Positions 56,401 to 64,000 of a stretch of DNA of 64,000 nucleotides are shown here, one piece after another (positions within the stretch are counted from its first letter, which is position 1; the number at the start of each line of letters is the position of its first letter). The stretch is from the NCBI RefSeq assembly GCF_030625865.1, contig NZ_DAOUQB010000010.1, positions 966 through 64,965 on the forward strand. Direction: 5' to 3'. Made by a program: the position numbers and the translations under genes. A model generated the notes under the pieces. The model was not told the origin of the DNA, ran no database searches, and worked only from the letters and a program-made list of their open reading frames with translations. Source of the DNA: Anaerotignum sp. GTDB taxonomy: Bacteria; Bacillota; Clostridia; Lachnospirales; Anaerotignaceae.

Positions 56401-56766
56401 ATGATTTTTATCGGGGGTATTGCCCAAGGCCGGAAGGATTTAGGCTTTTTACAAACTTTAGTTTGTAAAAAATGCGGACGCTACAGCAGTGTTTCCGTTT
56501 ATATGGTTTACACATATTTTAGCTTTTTCTTTATACCACTATTCAAATGGGGTAAAAAATACTATGCAGTTTCAAACTGCTGTCAAACAACTTTTTCTAT
56601 TTCTGACGAAATAGGCAAAGCGATTGAACGAGGAGAATCTGTAACTTTACAGGAAGATGATTTAGAAATTATAGGTATGGCACATAATTCTTCCTACTGC
56701 CCTGACTGCGGTTTTTTATTATCTCCTGATTATACTTATTGTCCCAAGTGTGGCAGAAAATTATAA
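56401..56766 (+). CDS. zinc-ribbon domain protein with a central TM segment
   Basis: CKKCG..., CPDCG and CPKCG pairs; 121 aa. Confidence 0.6.
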   Translation: MIFIGGIAQGRKDLGFLQTLVCKKCGRYSSVSVYMVYTYFSFFFIPLFKWGKKYYAVSNCCQTTFSISDEIGKAIERGESVTLQEDDLEIIGMAHNSSYCPDCGFLLSPDYTYCPKCGRKL

Positions 56767-58456: not shown

Positions 58457-58662
58457 GAAATTCCTCCTTCCTAAATAACTATACATGATTTTTTGACCCA
58501 TGCTCTCAAAATCCATCATCAAATTCTCCCTTGTCACGACATGTCCTCGAAAAAAAGGACAAAAAATCTTTCTTTCAGACACGCACGTAAGAAAAACTTA
58601 TAACATACAATAAATCTATAACACGATTTCACTGGTTTTTTGAAAATTTTGGGGGTGAGTAT

Positions 58663-59325
58663 GTGCTAGTTTTTTTTATGGCTTTGCCATGTTTGTTTGC
58701 CTTTTCTTCTGCCGGGGCCTTTCCGAAACCATTGTCAAAAGAAGAGGAAGCCTTTTATTTAAACCTGTATCAAACAGGAAATGAAGCGGAAAAGAAAGAA
58801 GCAAAGGATAATCTGATTCTTCATAATCTTCGGCTGGTAGCCCATATCGCAAAAAAATATTCGGGCAACGCAAGAGAACCAGAAGAATTAATCTCCATCG
58901 GAATAATCGGTCTAATCAAGGCTGTCGATTCATATAACACAGAGAAAAATGTAAGACTGGTTTCTTACGCAGCCAAATGTATTCAAAATGAATTACTCAT
59001 GTGGCTAAGAAGTGGAAAAAAATTTCAAAACGATATATCTCTTCATGAACCCATTGGTACTGACAGAGATGGCAACGAAATCGTCATGCTGGATATCATA
59101 AACAGCGACAATCCTGATTTTGTAGATACCATTGATTTTTCTATTAAATCCGAAAAAATGCTAAATGCCGTAAAAACCGTTTTATCCCCTAGAGAAAGGA
59201 CAGTTATCATACTCCGATACGGTTTGATGAATCAAGATATTCTAACCCAACAAGAAATCGCTGAACGATTAGGAATATCCCGCTCTTACTCTCCTGATAT
59301 TTTAGGGCTAAACTTTTTTAAATAA
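58663..59325 (+). CDS. sigK: pro-sigma-K, 5' segment only (gene interrupted after Tyr209 in region 4.2)
   Basis: A hydrophobic pro-sequence is followed by AFPKPLSKEEE, HNLRLVAHIAKKY and ..QQEIAERLGISRSY. Homology to sigma-K (..ISRSYVSRIEKRAL..) then stops, and 11 unrelated codons (SPDILGLNFFK) run into a stop. Confidence 0.8.
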   Translation: MLVFFMALPCLFAFSSAGAFPKPLSKEEEAFYLNLYQTGNEAEKKEAKDNLILHNLRLVAHIAKKYSGNAREPEELISIGIIGLIKAVDSYNTEKNVRLVSYAAKCIQNELLMWLRSGKKFQNDISLHEPIGTDRDGNEIVMLDIINSDNPDFVDTIDFSIKSEKMLNAVKTVLSPRERTVIILRYGLMNQDILTQQEIAERLGISRSYSPDILGLNFFK

Positions 59326-59362
59326 TATGCAGGAATAACCCAATATTTTTATTCCTGCATAT
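59325..59362. terminator. perfect 14-bp hairpin between the two stop codons
   Basis: ATATGCAGGAATAA-cccaatattt-TTATTCCTGCATAT. It spans exactly from the stop of the sigK fragment to the stop of recombinase 1. Confidence 0.65.
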
Positions 59363-60930
59363 CACTTGGTAAAGACATCTTGAAAATTCCAAAGAATTTT
59401 GATTGCTCCATTTTGTTCAATGAAAATGACATCTACAAAAACGTCAACCAGTTCCCTTGTTAAGCTTGGATAAGGGAATATCTTATTTAGCCTTAACATA
59501 TCCTCCTGATTTTTGGGGAAATCGAATTGAGAATAACCTGATTTTTCCTGCTCCAGCAAAAGTGCACTTTCTATTTTCTCGTAAAGGTCTTGATATCCAT
59601 TTTTTTTCATTAAAAAATCATCTTTTCCCAGCTTGTTTTCTTTATAGGCTTCATATAACTCAATCTTAGCCAAACCTATTTTCTTTAATTTTTCTTCCTG
59701 TTGTTTTATAAGCTTTTTATTTTTTTGAATTCTTTCTTTCGATTGTCCATTAAAATATTCTTCTAACTCACCAGCATTACTGCTTACCATCAGTTTATTT
59801 AAATAAAACAATATTGCATCCTCTATGCTATGTTCCGCAATTTTTTCACCATAACAACGAACCCCATTGGTAAACACTAACTTTGGACAACGATATACTG
59901 CTACAGAACCTTTGCTCCCATTTTCCTCTGATATTTTCCGTGACATCATATAATGGCAGCCACCGCATCTTACTTTTTTCCATAAAGGATAAGGCTTTTC
60001 TTTTTTCCTTGGCTGATAATTTCTTCCTTTTGCCTGAACCTGTTCATAAATATCTCTTCCAATAATTGGTTCATGGGTATTCGGTACTATAATCCATTCT
60101 TGTTTCGGCACCTTTTTATCTTCTCTACTTCCTATTTTTTTAGGTTTTACCTTTCCATACACCGAATCCCCCGCGTATCTTTGATCATTTAGTATCCTCC
60201 CTATTGTTGCAGGGCTCCATAGGAATTGTTTGCTAACACCGGTGCAGAAAAAGGGCTCCTTTCGCATTTTACGAAGCTTCAAAGGGCTTGGTATCTCTTC
60301 AGAATTAAGATAACGGGCAATTTCAATCTGAGGGATACCCGCCAACGCCATTTTAAAAATCCTTTGCACAACAGAGGCCGCCTCTTTGTCTATCACAAGT
60401 TTCTGCTCTTTGGATTTTCCATAGCCATACGGCGCAAAAGCTGTAATAAATTTGCCTTGTTCTGCCTTTGACCGTCTTACGCTTGTAATCTTTTGAGATA
60501 AATCCTTGCTATAAAGATCATACATTAAATTTTGAAAGGATATCCCCATAAAATCACCGTTACCAAAAGCCCTACCGCTATCAAAATTATCATTGATTGA
60601 AATAAATCGAACACCCCAAAAAGGGAAAACCTGCTCAATATAGTTTCCAACTTCAATATAATTGCGGCCAAAACGAGAAAAATCCTTAACCATGATACAA
60701 AAAACCTCTCCGTTTCTGGCTTTTTGGAGCAGTTTCATTACACCTGGGCGGTTAAAGTTTGTTCCGCTATAACCGTCATCGCAAAACTCTAATATTTCAT
60801 ATGATGAAAGATCCCTATGATGAAGTATGTAATGCTGTATGAGCTCTCTTTGTCCTTTCACACTAACACTCTCTTCTGGATTTTCATCTTCATCAGAAAG
60901 GCGAAGATAAATCCCTATTTTTTGTTCCAT
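59362..60930 (-). CDS. large serine recombinase 1
   Basis: MEQKIGIYLRLSDED.. (catalytic Ser), ..DDGYSG..RPG..VKDFSRFGRNY.., a Cys-rich zinc-ribbon region, a coiled coil and a DUF4368-like C-terminus. The ATG at 60930 follows GGGGGAGGGG. Confidence 0.85.
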   Translation of the reverse strand: MEQKIGIYLRLSDEDENPEESVSVKGQRELIQHYILHHRDLSSYEILEFCDDGYSGTNFNRPGVMKLLQKARNGEVFCIMVKDFSRFGRNYIEVGNYIEQVFPFWGVRFISINDNFDSGRAFGNGDFMGISFQNLMYDLYSKDLSQKITSVRRSKAEQGKFITAFAPYGYGKSKEQKLVIDKEAASVVQRIFKMALAGIPQIEIARYLNSEEIPSPLKLRKMRKEPFFCTGVSKQFLWSPATIGRILNDQRYAGDSVYGKVKPKKIGSREDKKVPKQEWIIVPNTHEPIIGRDIYEQVQAKGRNYQPRKKEKPYPLWKKVRCGGCHYMMSRKISEENGSKGSVAVYRCPKLVFTNGVRCYGEKIAEHSIEDAILFYLNKLMVSSNAGELEEYFNGQSKERIQKNKKLIKQQEEKLKKIGLAKIELYEAYKENKLGKDDFLMKKNGYQDLYEKIESALLLEQEKSGYSQFDFPKNQEDMLRLNKIFPYPSLTRELVDVFVDVIFIEQNGAIKILWNFQDVFTK

Positions 60931-62332
60931 ATTCCCCTCCCCCATCAAGCATTTTTTCAATTTCGTCAGTTGCCTTATTATACTCAGATTGATATGGGAA
61001 GGAAATACAGCAATGATTATTTGTTACAGTAATTTTTTCTATTAATAAACGGCATTTCTCACCGTTAAATTTTTCTGCATTTTCTAAAAAAGTTTTCCCC
61101 CCGGAATCAATTAACAATAGAAGATGGCTTTTGCATATTTGTAAAACCACCTCCTGTATTTCATCTTCTCTAATAGAACGGGCGGTGCACCCTCCTTTTT
61201 TCAGATATTTTTTGGGACAATTAAAAAAATGGCCTACCAACGTACCATCCTTGCGATAATACCCTCCGTCCCGTTGTAAAGCACTACCACACGCACCGCA
61301 AAATAATAAGCCCCGAAAAACATTCTCTGTCCTCTGTCTATGTGCATATTTACTTGCGTTATTTTTTTTCTGTAATGCAGATTGTTTTAAAATATCCTGT
61401 ACTGCATAAAATATTTCCCGGGATATAATAGGAGCGTGAGTATCTTCTATGATATTCCATTCTATTGGGGGAATAACATCTTTCGTTCCCCCTTTATACA
61501 AAGCCTTTTGCGTTTTACGCTCCACAAGGCACCCCATATAACAGTGGTTTTTCAAAACATTTGTAACCGTTGAGCCGTGCCATAGGGCTGATTCTTTTCC
61601 ATCTGGAAACCCTTCCAGAAAACGAAATTTCATTTGTGTTGGTACACACATCTCGTTCAGCCTTCTGGCAATTCTTGTAGGTCCTACCCCTTCTTTGCGC
61701 CACTGAAAAATACTTCTTACAACTTCAGCTTGCTCATTCTCTATCTCCAGTTTGTATGGATCTGTTTTTGATTGAACATAACCATAGGGTGGGATTCTGT
61801 TCATAAACTTACCGTTTTTTTTCTTCACATCAATGGCAGTGCTTACTTTTCTTGAAATATCCTTTGCATAACTATCGTGTAAAATGGATTTCAGTGAAAC
61901 CATTAAGCCATCCTGATGGTCGGCTAAAAGACTATCAAAATTATCATTGACAGATATAAACCGCACACCATTTTTAGGAAATATATTTTCCAAGTAATTC
62001 CCTGTTTCTAAATAATTTCTGCCAAAACGAGATAAATCTTTGACGATAATACAATTGATCTTTCCTGTTTCCACATCTTGCATAAGCCTAAAAAATTCCG
62101 GTCTGTGGAAATTTGTACCTGTTTGTCCATTATCTATATAGGTATCAATAAAAATCAAATCTTTATGTATCTCCATGTATTTTTCTACCAGTAATATTTG
62201 GTTTTCTATGGAGGAATTATCAAGGTTTGTGTCCTCAACGGAGAGCCTTGCATAGATAGCAGAATAATATTTTTGCCTCTCTTTCTTCTCCGTTACACCC
62301 ACCTGATTTTTTTTTCTGCTTTTTCTTGCCAT
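60893..62332 (-). CDS. large serine recombinase 2
   Basis: ..AIYARLSVED..DNGQTGTNFHRPEF..VKDLSRFGRNY.., a recombinase domain and a Cys cluster. RBS is AAGGAGGA. The 3' end overlaps recombinase 1 by 38 nt. Confidence 0.85.
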   Translation of the reverse strand: MARKSRKKNQVGVTEKKERQKYYSAIYARLSVEDTNLDNSSIENQILLVEKYMEIHKDLIFIDTYIDNGQTGTNFHRPEFFRLMQDVETGKINCIIVKDLSRFGRNYLETGNYLENIFPKNGVRFISVNDNFDSLLADHQDGLMVSLKSILHDSYAKDISRKVSTAIDVKKKNGKFMNRIPPYGYVQSKTDPYKLEIENEQAEVVRSIFQWRKEGVGPTRIARRLNEMCVPTQMKFRFLEGFPDGKESALWHGSTVTNVLKNHCYMGCLVERKTQKALYKGGTKDVIPPIEWNIIEDTHAPIISREIFYAVQDILKQSALQKKNNASKYAHRQRTENVFRGLLFCGACGSALQRDGGYYRKDGTLVGHFFNCPKKYLKKGGCTARSIREDEIQEVVLQICKSHLLLLIDSGGKTFLENAEKFNGEKCRLLIEKITVTNNHCCISFPYQSEYNKATDEIEKMLDGGGEYGTKNRDLSSPF

Positions 62333-62355: not shown

Positions 62356-63999
62356 TTAAAATGAATTTTCTTCTCTATAGACTGGGATTTCAGACTTCTG
62401 TACTTCTTTTTCAAACTCGTCTGTGTACTGCAATATTACCCTTACAGATTTTTTATCAAAAATGATAATATTTTCTATTAAAAGAACCAGTGTAGTCCTA
62501 TTTAACTCTGATACACTTTCATCCCCCAAAAACCATCTTATCCGATCATTGTTACAGTCATTTTTTCCAATGAATTTTCCTTTTAAATACAATGCATCTA
62601 TATTTTTTTGAATCTCACCACATATTTTTTCATAACAGGCTTTCATCTCCAAATACTCATCCTTTGTCAAAACACCCTCTCTGTAATCTTCATAAATAGA
62701 CATTTTTAGACCTTCATATCTTTCCAGTTCATCTTTTTTCCTATTTAGCTGCAATTCAACCTTTTGCTTTTCTTCTTGTTTTTTCGTTAATCTATCTATT
62801 TCTTTCATTTCCCCATCCATTTCACAAAAAAGACTCCTATGCTTTTTCAATAAGACAAGCAACATCTCTTCTATAAAATTTTCTCGAATTCGATGACTGC
62901 TACATGCATCTTTATCCTCTTTATTCTTTGAGCAAATATAATAGGCATAGGTTTTCCCTGGGGCCTTTACCGGTTTTCGCACCATATTGCTCCCACACCC
63001 ACCGCATTTTAGCAAGCCAGATAGCAAATAAAGTTTCTCATTTTCCGGTGAAGTTCTGGTATCGTTAAGCATTATTTTCTGTAGAATTTCAAAATTTTTC
63101 TTTGAAATGATAGCCTCATGGGTATGCTCAACCCGTACCCAATCCTCTTTTGGCGTTTTTATTCTTTTTTTGATTTTATAACTTAATGAGGTTTCCTTCC
63201 CTTGCAGCATGACCCCCGTATAGATTTCATTTTTCAAAATTCGATCCACTGTCATAGGCACCCATTTGGCTCTTGGATTTAATTTGAAAGGTGTATCATA
63301 TGGGGAATCATGTAACTTTTTATATTCCATGGGAGATGGCACTCCTAATTCATTCAAGGATTTCGCAATATATGTATTGTTATAGCCTGCCATACGCATG
63401 GCAAAGATCTCTTTTACGATTTCGGCAGCTTCTTGGTCAACAACCAGCTTATGTTTATCCTCCTGTGAACGAGAATATCCATAAACAGCAAATGCCCCCA
63501 CAAAATCTCCGCACTTTTGCCTTATTTTAAGTTGAGATCTTGACTTTATAGAAATATCTCTACTGTAAGCATCATTCATTAAATTCTTAAAAGGAATCAG
63601 TATACTATCCGTTTGTGTGGCATCCCGCCCAGTATCAATATTGTCATTGATTGCGATAAAACGAACACCAAGAAAAGGGAAGATTTGTTCAATATACCTT
63701 CCCGTTTCAATATAATTTCTGCCAAATCGAGAAAGATCTTTTACAATAATACAATTTATTGTCCCTATTTTTATCTCTTCCAAAAGTTCCTTAAGAGCCG
63801 GCCTTTCAAAAGTAACACCGCTATAGCCATCATCAATTTTTACACTGACAACTACAATATCCTTTTTATCTTTTAAATAAAACTCAATGAAATCTCTTTG
63901 ATTTTTTATACTATTACTTTCCAATTTATCCCCATCTTCCCGAGATAAACGCAAATATATTCCAGCTTTATACATTTTCGTCACATCATCCAAATACAT
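62356..63999 (-). CDS. large serine recombinase 3 (start at 63975, 63999 or beyond the window edge)
   Basis: ..GIYLRLSREDGD..DDGYSGVTFERPA..VKDLSRFGRNY.., a CGGCG zinc ribbon, a coiled coil and a DUF4368-like C-terminus. Confidence 0.8.
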   Translation of the reverse strand: MYLDDVTKMYKAGIYLRLSREDGDKLESNSIKNQRDFIEFYLKDKKDIVVVSVKIDDGYSGVTFERPALKELLEEIKIGTINCIIVKDLSRFGRNYIETGRYIEQIFPFLGVRFIAINDNIDTGRDATQTDSILIPFKNLMNDAYSRDISIKSRSQLKIRQKCGDFVGAFAVYGYSRSQEDKHKLVVDQEAAEIVKEIFAMRMAGYNNTYIAKSLNELGVPSPMEYKKLHDSPYDTPFKLNPRAKWVPMTVDRILKNEIYTGVMLQGKETSLSYKIKKRIKTPKEDWVRVEHTHEAIISKKNFEILQKIMLNDTRTSPENEKLYLLSGLLKCGGCGSNMVRKPVKAPGKTYAYYICSKNKEDKDACSSHRIRENFIEEMLLVLLKKHRSLFCEMDGEMKEIDRLTKKQEEKQKVELQLNRKKDELERYEGLKMSIYEDYREGVLTKDEYLEMKACYEKICGEIQKNIDALYLKGKFIGKNDCNNDRIRWFLGDESVSELNRTTLVLLIENIIIFDKKSVRVILQYTDEFEKEVQKSEIPVYREENSF

Positions 64000-64000
64000 A

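Follow-up and report, generated by a model that had tools for sequence, protein, structure and literature searches.

A sigK gene split inside its region 4.2 helix at the left end of a candidate excisable element with three tandem serine recombinase genes in the Anaerotignum propionicum clade

The stretch of DNA analysed here (the window, 64,000 nucleotides from Anaerotignum sp.) carries, adjoining an intact spoIIAA-spoIIAB-sigF operon, an ORF for pro-sigma-K that starts with GTG and encodes 220 amino acids (58663-59325, plus strand). Its N-terminus is of the pro-sequence type (...AGAFPKPLSKEEE), with a hydrophobic leader of about 19 residues followed by AFPKPLS. Two NCBIfam SigK profiles were matched, PRK05803 with 259 bits (ORF residues 8-210 on profile positions 16-213 of 235) and TIGR02846 with 249 bits, below its cut-off of 298.65 (residues 16-210 on positions 22-211 of 227). 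Both matches end at residue 210 and so fall short of the profile end, and the ORF as encoded in the window gives no full-length SigK match that includes region 4.2. Codons 1-209 (58663..59289, plus strand) comprise the pro-sequence and regions 1.2 to the first part of 4.2. After Tyr209 (TAC, 59287-59289) the window reads SPDILGLNFFK-stop, and the intact genes of relatives read VSRIEKKALKKLNAALED. The gene is thus cut at nt 627/684, between Tyr209 and Val210, inside the recognition helix of region 4.2. The first-pass annotation had placed the split after Tyr209, which agrees with the profile matches and with the foreign DNA starting at 59290; its estimate of 25-30 missing C-terminal codons was too high, the actual loss being 18 codons (209 of 227 present). 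Addition of the relatives' 18-residue tail to the 5' segment extended the match to 225/227 and brought a gain of 28 bits; the scores were then 288 bits against the PRK05803 cut-off of 252, and 277 bits, still below the equivalog cut-off.

The last codons of the ORF, SPDILGLNFFK and the stop (59290..59325, plus strand), are a translated inverted repeat and not part of sigK. The identical break recurs in 37 distinct proteins of the database, which derive from many independent assemblies and continue after the break with a conserved element end, S[PSC][DV]I[IL]GLN. No complete gene of a relative naturally ends in ...SRSYSPDILGLNFFK, as the first-pass annotation had required for its reading, and the SRSYSPDILGLNFFK tail corresponds to the conserved inverted-repeat end of the element. 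The source is a draft contig, the window protein mapping to a 75,327-bp NCBI contig, which could raise the suspicion that the junction is an assembly or chimera artefact. Two independent Logan assemblies of the window sequence nevertheless show the same junction, as do the complete genome CP133078.1 and dozens of further assemblies, and such an artefact is almost certainly not the explanation.

Upstream of the ORF lies a putative mother-cell-type promoter consisting of GCAC, a 17-nt spacer and CATACAATA (58583..58612, plus strand), recognized by consensus matching. The -10 consensus of sigma-E and sigma-K is CATACA-T and CATA---TA, respectively, to which we presume the -10-like element of sigK to be akin. 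Of the 8 species aligned, the 7 closest share this element, CATACAAT, without change, and the most distant one (L008) has CATAGAAT. GCAC-N17-CATACAATA and an AAGGACA box are kept in 8 species, with the sigma factor assigned by consensus alone. Further upstream we located a SpoIIID-like box, AAGGACAA (58555..58562, plus strand), with a putative regulatory function. The surrounding block, AAAGGACA, is invariant in 8 species, split and intact alike, and resembles the SpoIIID consensus TAGGACAAGC as quoted in PMC11180830. Comparison with four other split-bearing species gave a dN/dS of 0.015-0.045 for the 5' half of the gene at a dS of 1.26-2.66, values which indicate that this half is under strong purifying selection.

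From 59290 to the window end at 64000 the DNA forms the left 4.7 kb of a sigK-intervening element that continues past the window end. The TAC of Tyr209 (59287..59289, plus strand) is the crossover core, common to attL, attR and attB in the alignments, and split and rejoined copies of the gene part exactly after it. The deduced attP is a near-perfect palindrome, GGAGAGT/ACTCTCC, centred on TA, which is likely the central dinucleotide of the crossover core. A palindromic TA core would not alone set the polarity of recombination. The left-end inverted repeat TCTCCTGATATTTTAGGGCTAAA (59290..59312, plus strand), the P' arm of attL, is kept in the window and in three further sequences (L003, L005 and L091); its reverse complement corresponds to the right ends, TTTAGCCCT-N-AACAGGAGAG, of nine genomes. 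The element ends are therefore inverted repeats, (TAC)TCTCCTGnTAnnnnAGGGCTAAA, with 23-nt arms; a short common core, inverted repeats and an element-encoded recombinase beside the att site are all present. The pattern expected of an attP circle (right end, TAY, left end) had 0 matches in metagenome contigs and viral contigs. The 39-mer to the left of the window junction likewise had 0 matches in metagenome contigs, which provided no further split or joined copies of the window species. Almost the same site also serves a second, unrelated and abundant family of elements, whose cargo is ParA, Fic, type I R-M and GmrSD.

The recombinases that the first-pass annotation had noticed next to the break proved to be three large serine recombinase (LSR) genes on the minus strand, beginning 73 bp from attL. 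All three products match PF00239, PF07508 and PF13408 (Resolvase, Recombinase and Zn_ribbon_recom) and have N-terminal Y-x-R-L-S motifs. XisF was their top NCBIfam match, at 88-110 bits against a cut-off of 375. The att-proximal, "external" recombinase r1 (59362-60930, 522 aa) has the catalytic motif YLRLS; its orthologues in 4 species are 47-54% identical and its paralogues 30-38%, with a pN/pS of 0.40 at saturated pS. The middle recombinase r2 (60893-62332, 479 aa; orthologues 47-66% identical) may be dispensable, since L098 and A. propionicum have a shortened version of 318-329 aa. The internal recombinase r3 (62356-63999, 547 aa) has orthologues that are 59-65% identical. Upstream of r3, past the window end, there is a DUF6870 gene (L001 8998-9243), together with a promoter motif that is conserved. 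The ORFs of DUF6870 and of each of the three recombinase orthogroups are preserved. The DUF6870 protein has 78-87 aa, and its gene is kept upstream of LSR genes both here and in other Clostridia, which makes it a candidate directionality factor (RDF).

The sequence TAGGACAAGA sits 44 nt upstream of the DUF6870 start codon and matches the SpoIIID consensus TAGGACAAGC at 9/10 positions; across five species the box agrees with the consensus at 8-9/10 positions. The exact 9-mer of the box, of which 0.34 copies are expected per 64 kb, is absent from the window. This SpoIIID-consensus-like box before the DUF6870-recombinase operon is only a lead to sporulation control. A sigma-E-type kmATA -35 element is possible at this promoter. 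A sigma-A promoter (TTGAAT-17-TATATA) fitted three of the five species only, and forespore sigma-F/G and sigma-K spacings fitted poorly.

The missing end of sigK, VSRIEKKALKKL..., comprises 18 codons and lies outside the window. When all six frames of the window were searched for [VI]SR[IL]E[KR], sigF's own region 4.2 was the sole match. In L003 and L005 the 3' fragment was expected just past DUF6870, and it was absent within 10 kb, which argues against a short element. A genome scan anchored on the U32 peptidase gene was then made for this reason, and located the fragment. Nine related species-level genomes (L011, L016, L018, L019, L022, L024, L027, L032 and L044) carry, beside marR and the U32 peptidase gene, an orphan fragment that begins with Tyr and VSRIEKKALKKL and ends in a stop (Y-VSRIEKKALKKLN..D-stop). 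In the element-free relatives L008, L090 and L097, marR/U32 lies directly downstream of an intact sigK. The three genomes that place both gene halves, MB30-C6, ADS28 and A. propionicum DFI.7.94, have them collinear, at distances of 21,963, 22,106 and 35,423 bp, respectively, which are the lengths of the element in these relatives. On account of the collinear order in these three genomes, an inversion geometry was rejected. The first 13 residues of the fragment are invariant in the nine species despite many synonymous differences, so that the fragment is, judging from this pattern, under purifying selection. The first-pass annotation's expectation of a separate 3' fragment was thus borne out in nine relatives; the window's own fragment was not retrieved. 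Since neither that fragment nor the window attR was retrieved, the window genome could in principle lack both.

These observations bear on the idea that the truncated 220-aa protein works as the sigma factor by itself, with the exchanged tail tolerated and the distant fragment of no relevance. In its favour are an open and conserved ORF and the partial conservation of the element-derived tails (S-P/S-D/V-I-I/L-G-L-N). The conservation of the tail is explained by the inverted-repeat DNA arm, past which the tails vary in length and sequence. A protein of this kind has moreover lost the recognition helix of region 4.2, and the idea leaves the purifying selection on the orphan fragment without explanation. 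We regard it as highly improbable.

Precisely rejoined sigK genes were found in three natural assemblies (L090, L106 and L097), all in frame and joined exactly at TAC. The joined L090 (SRR8197463) and the split L092 from a sister sample (SRR8197474) are 100.000% identical over 4,318 bp and diverge exactly after TAC; in the series SRR8197461-74, SRR8197463 alone yielded an assembly of the joined form. A similar relation was observed between the joined A. propionicum MAG L106 and the split strain DFI.7.94, which are 99.57% identical. The third pair, L097 (joined) and L098 (split), shows about 89-95% nucleotide identity. These alleles indicate that precise removal of the element restores an in-frame sigK. 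They could represent element-free strains rather than mother-cell DNA. The SRR accessions of the informative samples did not turn up in the literature. A published study of recombination in A. propionicum describes inversions near a chemotaxis gene, not sigK.

Since relatives carry both the missing end and precisely rejoined copies, the sigK split can be understood as a real skin-type gene switch. The orphan 3' fragment, the collinear halves and the natural rejoined copies support, at the level of genome comparison, the skin-like reading that the first-pass annotation had put forward. The opposite interpretation is a dead gene, left split by a relic insertion in a clade that no longer completes late sporulation. 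Public records carry the truncated ORF as plain SigK, our literature search found no paper tying Anaerotignum propionicum to sigK, and the literature on A. propionicum and spores held nothing bearing on sigK, all of which would suit such a relic. Against it stand the low dN/dS of the 5' half, the orphan 18-codon fragment with synonymous change only over its first 13 residues, the conserved sigK promoter beside an intact sigF operon, and the in-frame rejoined alleles. This interpretation is very unlikely.

The cargo of the element in relatives consists of PreTA pyrimidine catabolism, acryloyl-CoA reductase/ETF or pilin-like genes. The MB30-C6 element encodes PreA/PreT, a carbamoylase, a permease, AcrC (689.6 bits against a cut-off of 640) and EtfBA, together with ammonia-lyase-like proteins, a CoA-transferase, a nitroreductase and MerR; the A. 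propionicum element encodes a giant pilin-like protein. No phage or conjugation genes (relaxase, coupling protein, T4SS) were detected in the 22-kb element of MB30-C6, judged by the genes called on all but about 1.25 kb of it, and the prophage-like gene content of a classical skin, which the first-pass annotation had not foreseen to be missing, is lacking. The GC content of the element is not distinct (0.354 against 0.371). Among 50,697 phage records the best tblastn matches of r1 reached at most 37% identity, to unannotated fragments, and DUF6870 had no match among PHROG families; for these two reasons a prophage origin was rejected. At least nine species, between which synonymous divergence is saturated, carry the element at the same sigK site, and the recombinase orthologues diverge in parallel. 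The element looks vertically inherited. Element-free lineages (P0128/P0129 and L097) are nested in the clade, which means that the element is not indispensable.

The same data were used to weigh the possibility of an ordinary integrative mobile element, with the HTH-coding part of sigK as its attB, that excises in vegetative cells stochastically or on its own cue and is under no developmental control, so that only cells having lost it sporulate. DUF6870 with triple- or single-LSR modules does occur in unrelated mobile elements of Clostridia, serine-integrase triplets are known to serve streptococcal ICEs as integration modules and to disrupt the target genes (PMC4701971), the ParA/Fic family has settled at almost the same position, and both element-free lineages and same-strain empty sites are known. 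What is hard to reconcile with such an element is the lack of conjugation, mobilisation and phage genes in the MB30-C6 element, its host-like composition, the shared site and parallel divergence across species, and the conserved SpoIIID-type box before the recombinase operon; stochastic germ-line loss, in addition, would not keep an element across species. We consider it unlikely.

We therefore favour, as the probable explanation, a non-phage sigK-intervening element that is fixed in the chromosome in the Anaerotignum propionicum clade and excised at the time of sporulation, with its attL lying in the window. In sporulating cells, DUF6870 and the three tandem LSRs would recombine attL with attR at the TA/TAC core and release the 22-35 kb element as a circle. 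The 209-codon 5' segment would thereby be joined in frame to the 18-codon 3' segment, and sigma-K with an intact -35-reading helix would be made only after excision. Timing in the mother cell is inferred, and SpoIIID or sigma-E may control the DUF6870-recombinase operon; which recombinase or recombinases would catalyse the reaction, and the role of DUF6870 as directionality factor, are likewise matters of deduction. A bolder proposal, unlikely when taken as a whole, starts from the fermentation island that the element forms in several species (uracil/pyrimidine uptake, PreTA, carbamoylase, CoA-transferase, beta-alanyl-CoA-type ammonia lyases and AcrC-EtfAB). The element would then do more than interrupt a gene passively: its excision would activate sigma-K and, along with this, delete the vegetative catabolic genes of the island from the mother cell or uncouple them there. 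As a separate matter, the three co-inherited recombinases may form a hetero-oligomeric machine with DUF6870 and so confer polarity on the palindromic TA crossover site. To our knowledge, no characterised single-LSR system needs such a polarity machine of several recombinases.

For developmental DNA excision in bacteria, the rearrangement of sigK is the textbook example. The sigK elements described so far are prophage-derived and have a single recombinase, and the window element would extend the sigK switch to the Anaerotignaceae (Lachnospirales), a group of the gut and of anaerobic digesters. It stands apart by a new target site, which lies in the -35 recognition helix, by its non-viral nature with metabolic or pilin genes as cargo, and by a DUF6870 and triple-recombinase module otherwise known from mobile elements. 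The cultivable A. propionicum DSM 1682, A. neopropionicum DSM 3847 and MB30-C6 offer a testable system for recombinase triplets and DUF6870. Since the truncated ORF is labelled SigK and a second abundant family occupies the same helix-coding site, sporulation predictions from genomes of Anaerotignaceae may be systematically misread.

Among known systems, skin and the gin element in gerE of B. cereus come closest to the window element. Skin elements (B. subtilis SpoIVCA; C. difficile CD1231 with RDF CD1234; C. tetani; PhiS63) also interrupt sigK, have an LSR beside one att site and restore the frame by precise excision. C. difficile sigma-K lacks a pro-sequence, unlike the sigma-K of the window. 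Skins are prophages or prophage-like with one recombinase, whereas the window element has metabolic or pilin-like cargo, DUF6870 and three tandem LSRs. The first-pass annotation was right that the break site differs from that of B. subtilis skin, and the published clostridial skins differ too: PhiS63 of C. perfringens inserts at sigK nt 427, skinCd and skinCt are described as lying at a similar location and skinBs elsewhere (PMC3442830), in contrast to nt 627/684 here. Sigma-E and SpoIIID are required for sigK and the recombinase gene in B. subtilis and for the RDF in C. difficile (PMC5025042); here sigK and the recombinase operon each have a SpoIIID-like box ahead of them.

The gin element in gerE of Bacillus cereus ATCC 10987 is non-prophage and encodes GirA, GirB, GirC and GirX (PMC5595907). 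Like the window element it splits a mother-cell sporulation regulator, has three serine recombinases and a small accessory protein (in the window element a candidate), and uses short-core att sites, with imperfect inverted repeats in the case of gin (PMC5595907). The three recombinases and the lack of phage genes are shared, with DUF6870 as the candidate RDF, in a comparison made by description. The two differ in target and core (gerE and 9 bp; sigK and 3 bp), in the accessory protein (42-aa GirX; the DUF6870 candidate of 78-87 aa) and in arrangement, since gin has a girAB operon with girC apart and needs only GirC and GirX, and the orthogroups of the window are kept together in tandem across species. 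The triplets of streptococcal ICEs (Tn5252/Tn1549-type; targets mutT, traG and hsdM) are tandem LSRs at an element extremity (PMC4701971). Compared by description, they resemble the window LSRs in their single orientation, their external, middle and internal clusters, their integration inside a gene and their very short core (a 2-8 bp repeat; PMC4701971). Unlike the window-type element, which targets a sporulation gene and shows no conjugation module among the called genes in MB30-C6 (about 1.25 kb excepted), they are conjugative. Timed excision from a gene of a terminal cell line, as proposed here, is also seen in SP-beta/spsM, vfbin/spoVFB, vrin/spoVR and the heterocyst elements of nifD, fdxN and hupL (XisF), which differ from the window element in their genes, hosts and recombinase numbers.

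The region's best SigK-type protein comes from an ORF of 220 aa with a GTG start (58663-59325, plus strand); its N-terminus, a hydrophobic leader and then AFPKPLSKEEE, is arranged as in pro-sigma-K. The match to SigK is excellent yet ends short of the profile end, since residues 8-210 align with positions 16-213 of 235 in NCBIfam PRK05803 (259 bits) and residues 16-210 with positions 22-211 of 227 in NCBIfam TIGR02846. Past Tyr209 (TAC, 59287-59289) the frame reads SPDILGLNFFK-stop where intact relatives read VSRIEKKALKKLNAALED, and the split point is within the region 4.2 recognition helix. The first-pass annotation had proposed an interruption of sigK at this residue by a skin-like element, with recombinases at the break and 25-30 codons missing. 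The interruption was borne out by the end of the profile match at residue 210 and by the intact relatives, and three large serine recombinase (LSR) genes adjoin the break directly downstream on the minus strand, but the missing C-terminal codons number 18. Upstream of sigK, spoIIAA, spoIIAB and sigF are all intact, and the window contains no VSRIEK-type fragment apart from sigF's own. The GTG start (58663) overlaps an out-of-frame ATG (58661; window 58661-58665), and this start and its ribosome-binding site GGGGGTGAG are kept in eight species. A double zinc-ribbon protein (Zn_ribbon_15, 121 aa, 56401-56766, plus strand) is encoded between gapA and the spoIIA operon, in synteny conserved across all related loci.

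Protein homologues assigned the window to the Anaerotignum propionicum clade. All eight of the closest 90%-cluster representatives (83-94% identity) are broken at the identical residue and share the tail S[PSC][DV]I[IL]GLN, and the SigK homologues next in line (<=80% identity) are intact. The gene order 3' of intact sigK in an element-free relative (L008) is marR, U32 peptidase, O-methyltransferase and mltG. The 10 kb 3' of split sigK in MB30-C6 (L003, complete genome) and ADS28 (L005, MAG) contained three recombinases, a DUF6870 gene and metabolic genes, and no sigK fragment was found within that distance. Using the U32 peptidase as an anchor, we scanned one genome per species and detected an orphan fragment, ...Y/VSRIEKKALKKLN..D-stop, adjoining marR/U32 in nine genomes (MB30-C6, ADS28, UBA4139, A. 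propionicum DFI.7.94, A. neopropionicum DSM 3847, Tyzzerella sp. UBA1042 and three further MAGs); the matching 3' fragment that a skin-like element calls for is present in these relatives. This fragment has no gene call in public records, and nothing in the NCBI and UniRef entries for the truncated ORF and related proteins, which read 'RNA polymerase sporulation sigma factor SigK' (or sigma-28 factor), points to a split gene. Both halves were on one replicon or contig in three genomes, 21,963 bp apart in MB30-C6, 22,106 bp in ADS28 and 35,423 bp in A. propionicum, and were collinear in all three. This is the geometry of excision, and the collinear halves rule out that of inversion.

Intact members were concealed inside the 90% clusters of split SigK proteins. 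One joined protein (P0136, locus L090, Logan SRR8197463), whose gene is followed by marR/U32, is identical over residues 1-209 to a split one (P0131, locus L092, SRR8197474; the same type also in SRR8197461, -62, -66 and -69), and the two loci are 100.000% identical over 4,318 bp and diverge exactly after TAC. A second joined allele (P0142, locus L106, A. propionicum MAG GCA_031980065.1) showed 99.57% identity over 10.6 kb to the split locus of strain DFI.7.94 (L101). Its contig stops 52 bp beyond the rejoined junction (L106 10627-10679, contig DALZFJ010000087.1), and these 52 bp are those of the A. propionicum orphan fragment; a contig would be expected to break off in this way at a branch in the assembly graph, had the sample contained both split and joined forms. 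The element-free form of a third pair is closely related to its split counterpart (P0150, L097, versus split P0146, L098; about 89-95% nucleotide identity). Recombination at the sigK site is precise and recent, and the joined alleles are compatible with either mother-cell DNA or cured lineages as their source. The skin-like interpretation is thus supported by the orphan fragments, the collinear halves and the precisely rejoined alleles, and precise excision very probably restores sigK in the A. propionicum clade.

The split gene could instead be dead, or its truncated product sufficient. Across five split-bearing species the sigK 5' segment gave dN/dS of 0.015-0.045, with dS saturated (1.26-2.66). 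The first 13 residues of the orphan 18-codon fragment are invariant across nine species in spite of many synonymous differences, and the fragment (57 nt) has no start codon of its own. Selection on it makes sense only through joining to the 5' half, which rules out both the dead gene and the sufficiency of the truncated protein.

The junctions read ...CCCGCTCTTAC/TCTCCTGATATTTTAGGGCTAAAC at attL in the window, TTTAGCCCTTTTCTAACAGGAGAGTAC/GTATCACGAATTGAAAAA at attR in MB30-C6 and ...CCCGCTCCTAC/GTTTCAAGAATAGAA at attB in an intact locus (L020). Inverted repeats with the consensus (TAC)TCTCCTGnTAnnnnAGGGCTAAA form both element ends, and the deduced attP (ends joined) is an almost perfect palindrome, GGAGAGT/ACTCTCC, with TA at its centre. 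It shares TAC, and nothing else, with attB; large serine recombinases act on a 2-3 bp core with imperfect dyad arms on either side. The three LSR genes, r1 (59362-60930), r2 (60893-62332) and r3 (62356-63999), all on the minus strand, each encode Resolvase, Recombinase and zinc-ribbon domains together with the catalytic motif Y-x-R-L-S. They form three orthogroups, with cross-species identities of 47-54% (r1), 47-66% (r2) and 59-65% (r3) and 30-38% between paralogues. The recombinases are constrained (pN/pS 0.31-0.40, pS saturated), except for r2, which is shortened in two lineages; r1 and r3 are full length everywhere. In A. propionicum (L101 12211-13200) and a sister lineage (L098 12418-13374) r2 is cut to 318-329 aa and has lost the zinc ribbon and C-terminal part, a hint that r2 is dispensable.

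The strongest candidate accessory or directionality factor is DUF6870, because its gene is directly 5' of LSR genes in unrelated Clostridia elements also, with three tandem LSRs on Vescimonas fastidiosa pMM35_01 and with one on an Oscillospiraceae plasmid. The pMM35_01 locus (L103, 655264-663452) continues with two more pieces of the recombinase family (132 and 465 aa) and then barstar and spoIIID genes, and has ImmA/IrrE-HTH pairs upstream; it may represent a further element that is nested inside a recombinase gene, near a sporulation regulator. The intergenic DNA 5' of DUF6870 is poorly conserved save for a block, G[AC]ATAGGACAAGAAnTTTTTTTATATAAATGGAG, followed by the RBS. In the window species the box TAGGACAAGA (L001 9288-9297, minus strand) lies 44 nt before the DUF6870 ATG and matches the B. 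subtilis SpoIIID consensus TAGGACAAGC (as quoted in PMC11180830) at 9 of 10 positions; across all five species the figure is 8-9. That exact 9-mer would be expected 0.34 times per 64 kb, and no copy of it occurs anywhere in the window. Upstream of sigK conservation is high, with the box AAAGGACA invariant in all eight aligned species, and a motif GCAC-N17-CATACAATA, the -10-like part of which, CATACAAT, is shared by the seven closest species. Sigma-E and SpoIIID are required for sigK and spoIVCA in B. subtilis, and for the RDF gene CD1234 in C. difficile (PMC5025042). Judged from the box, SpoIIID may control the DUF6870-recombinase operon, which would restrict it to the mother cell as in these two species. 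Excision is likely to be developmentally controlled.

The left module of the element, comprising r1, r2, r3, DUF6870, PreA (610 bits, cut-off 335), PreT, a hydantoinase/carbamoylase-family amidase and a cytosine/purine-type permease, is kept in MB30-C6, ADS28, L098 and A. propionicum; the right module varies among genomes. AcrC (acryloyl-CoA reductase; 689.6 bits, above the NCBIfam equivalog cut-off of 640) and EtfB/EtfA were found there in MB30-C6, ADS28, L024 and A. neopropionicum, with up to four 3-aminobutyryl-CoA-ammonia-lyase-like proteins, a family III CoA-transferase, a nitroreductase and a MerR regulator; this set is absent from A. propionicum and four other genomes. The right end in A. 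propionicum DFI.7.94 (L022 12103-19518) encodes a 1,932-aa pilin-like protein that combines a pilin methylation motif at the N-terminus with GLUG repeats and an M26-like region; small pseudopilin-like genes come after it. The right end of UBA4139 (L018 12415-19875) has an ORF of comparable size (1,942 aa). The MB30-C6 element (L011 12621-20415 and L003 16145-20705) encodes an apparently complete route from pyrimidines or beta-alanine to propionyl-CoA, made up of the permease, PreT/PreA and the carbamoylase, the family III CoA-transferase, four proteins resembling aminoacyl-CoA ammonia-lyases, and AcrC-EtfBA. Cargo differs by species and the ends and recombinase module are retained. The element is not phage-like: no conjugation or phage genes were seen among the called genes of the 22-kb MB30-C6 element, the recombinases showed no identity above 37% to anything in a set of 50,697 phage records, and no PHROG family corresponds to DUF6870. 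In GC content the element is equal to its host (0.354 versus 0.371). Taken together, these features fit a long period of vertical residence during which cargo turned over. Intact lineages nested among split ones indicate that the element is occasionally lost from the germ line.

A second, unrelated element family cuts sigK one codon further (GISRSYV/...) in more distant Anaerotignum-like species (P0016, P0063, P0065, P0091-P0094, P0110, P0117 and P0049/P0062/P0073/P0077/P0079/P0105; attR in L021 at ~11880 and L046 at ~11893). Its conserved end translates as ..HAYCK.. and has the inverted repeats GCTTATTGTAA / TTACAATAAGC; one cluster comprises 273 sequences. In L021, genes for ParA, Fic, type I R-M and GmrSD adjoin attR, and an intact protein (P0047) and a split one (P0049) do not differ over 209 residues. 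The sequence that codes for region 4.2 has the look of a hot spot for insertion.

Our literature search returned no paper on a split sigK in Anaerotignum or C. propionicum. The B. subtilis, C. difficile and C. tetani skin elements and PhiS63 are prophages or prophage-like with a single LSR, whereas the Anaerotignum element is non-viral with three. Counted from the two ends of sigK, the PhiS63 core lies at nt 427 (5' end) and 265 (3' end); skinCd and skinCt are described as similarly placed, and skinBs as elsewhere (PMC3442830); the Anaerotignum site, nt 627 of 684, is new among the described cases. In architecture the closest precedent is gin, found in gerE of B. cereus, a non-prophage element with three serine recombinase genes, which requires only GirC and the 42-aa GirX (PMC5595907); unlike r1-r3, the gin genes form no tandem triplet. 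Tandem LSR triplets with positional orthogroups and repeats of 2-8 bp are found in streptococcal ICEs (PMC4701971), as in the sigK element, but those ICEs are conjugative and no conjugation genes were seen in the MB30-C6 element. The site, the non-viral metabolic or pilin cargo and the DUF6870 and triple-LSR module are new relative to the known skin-type switches.
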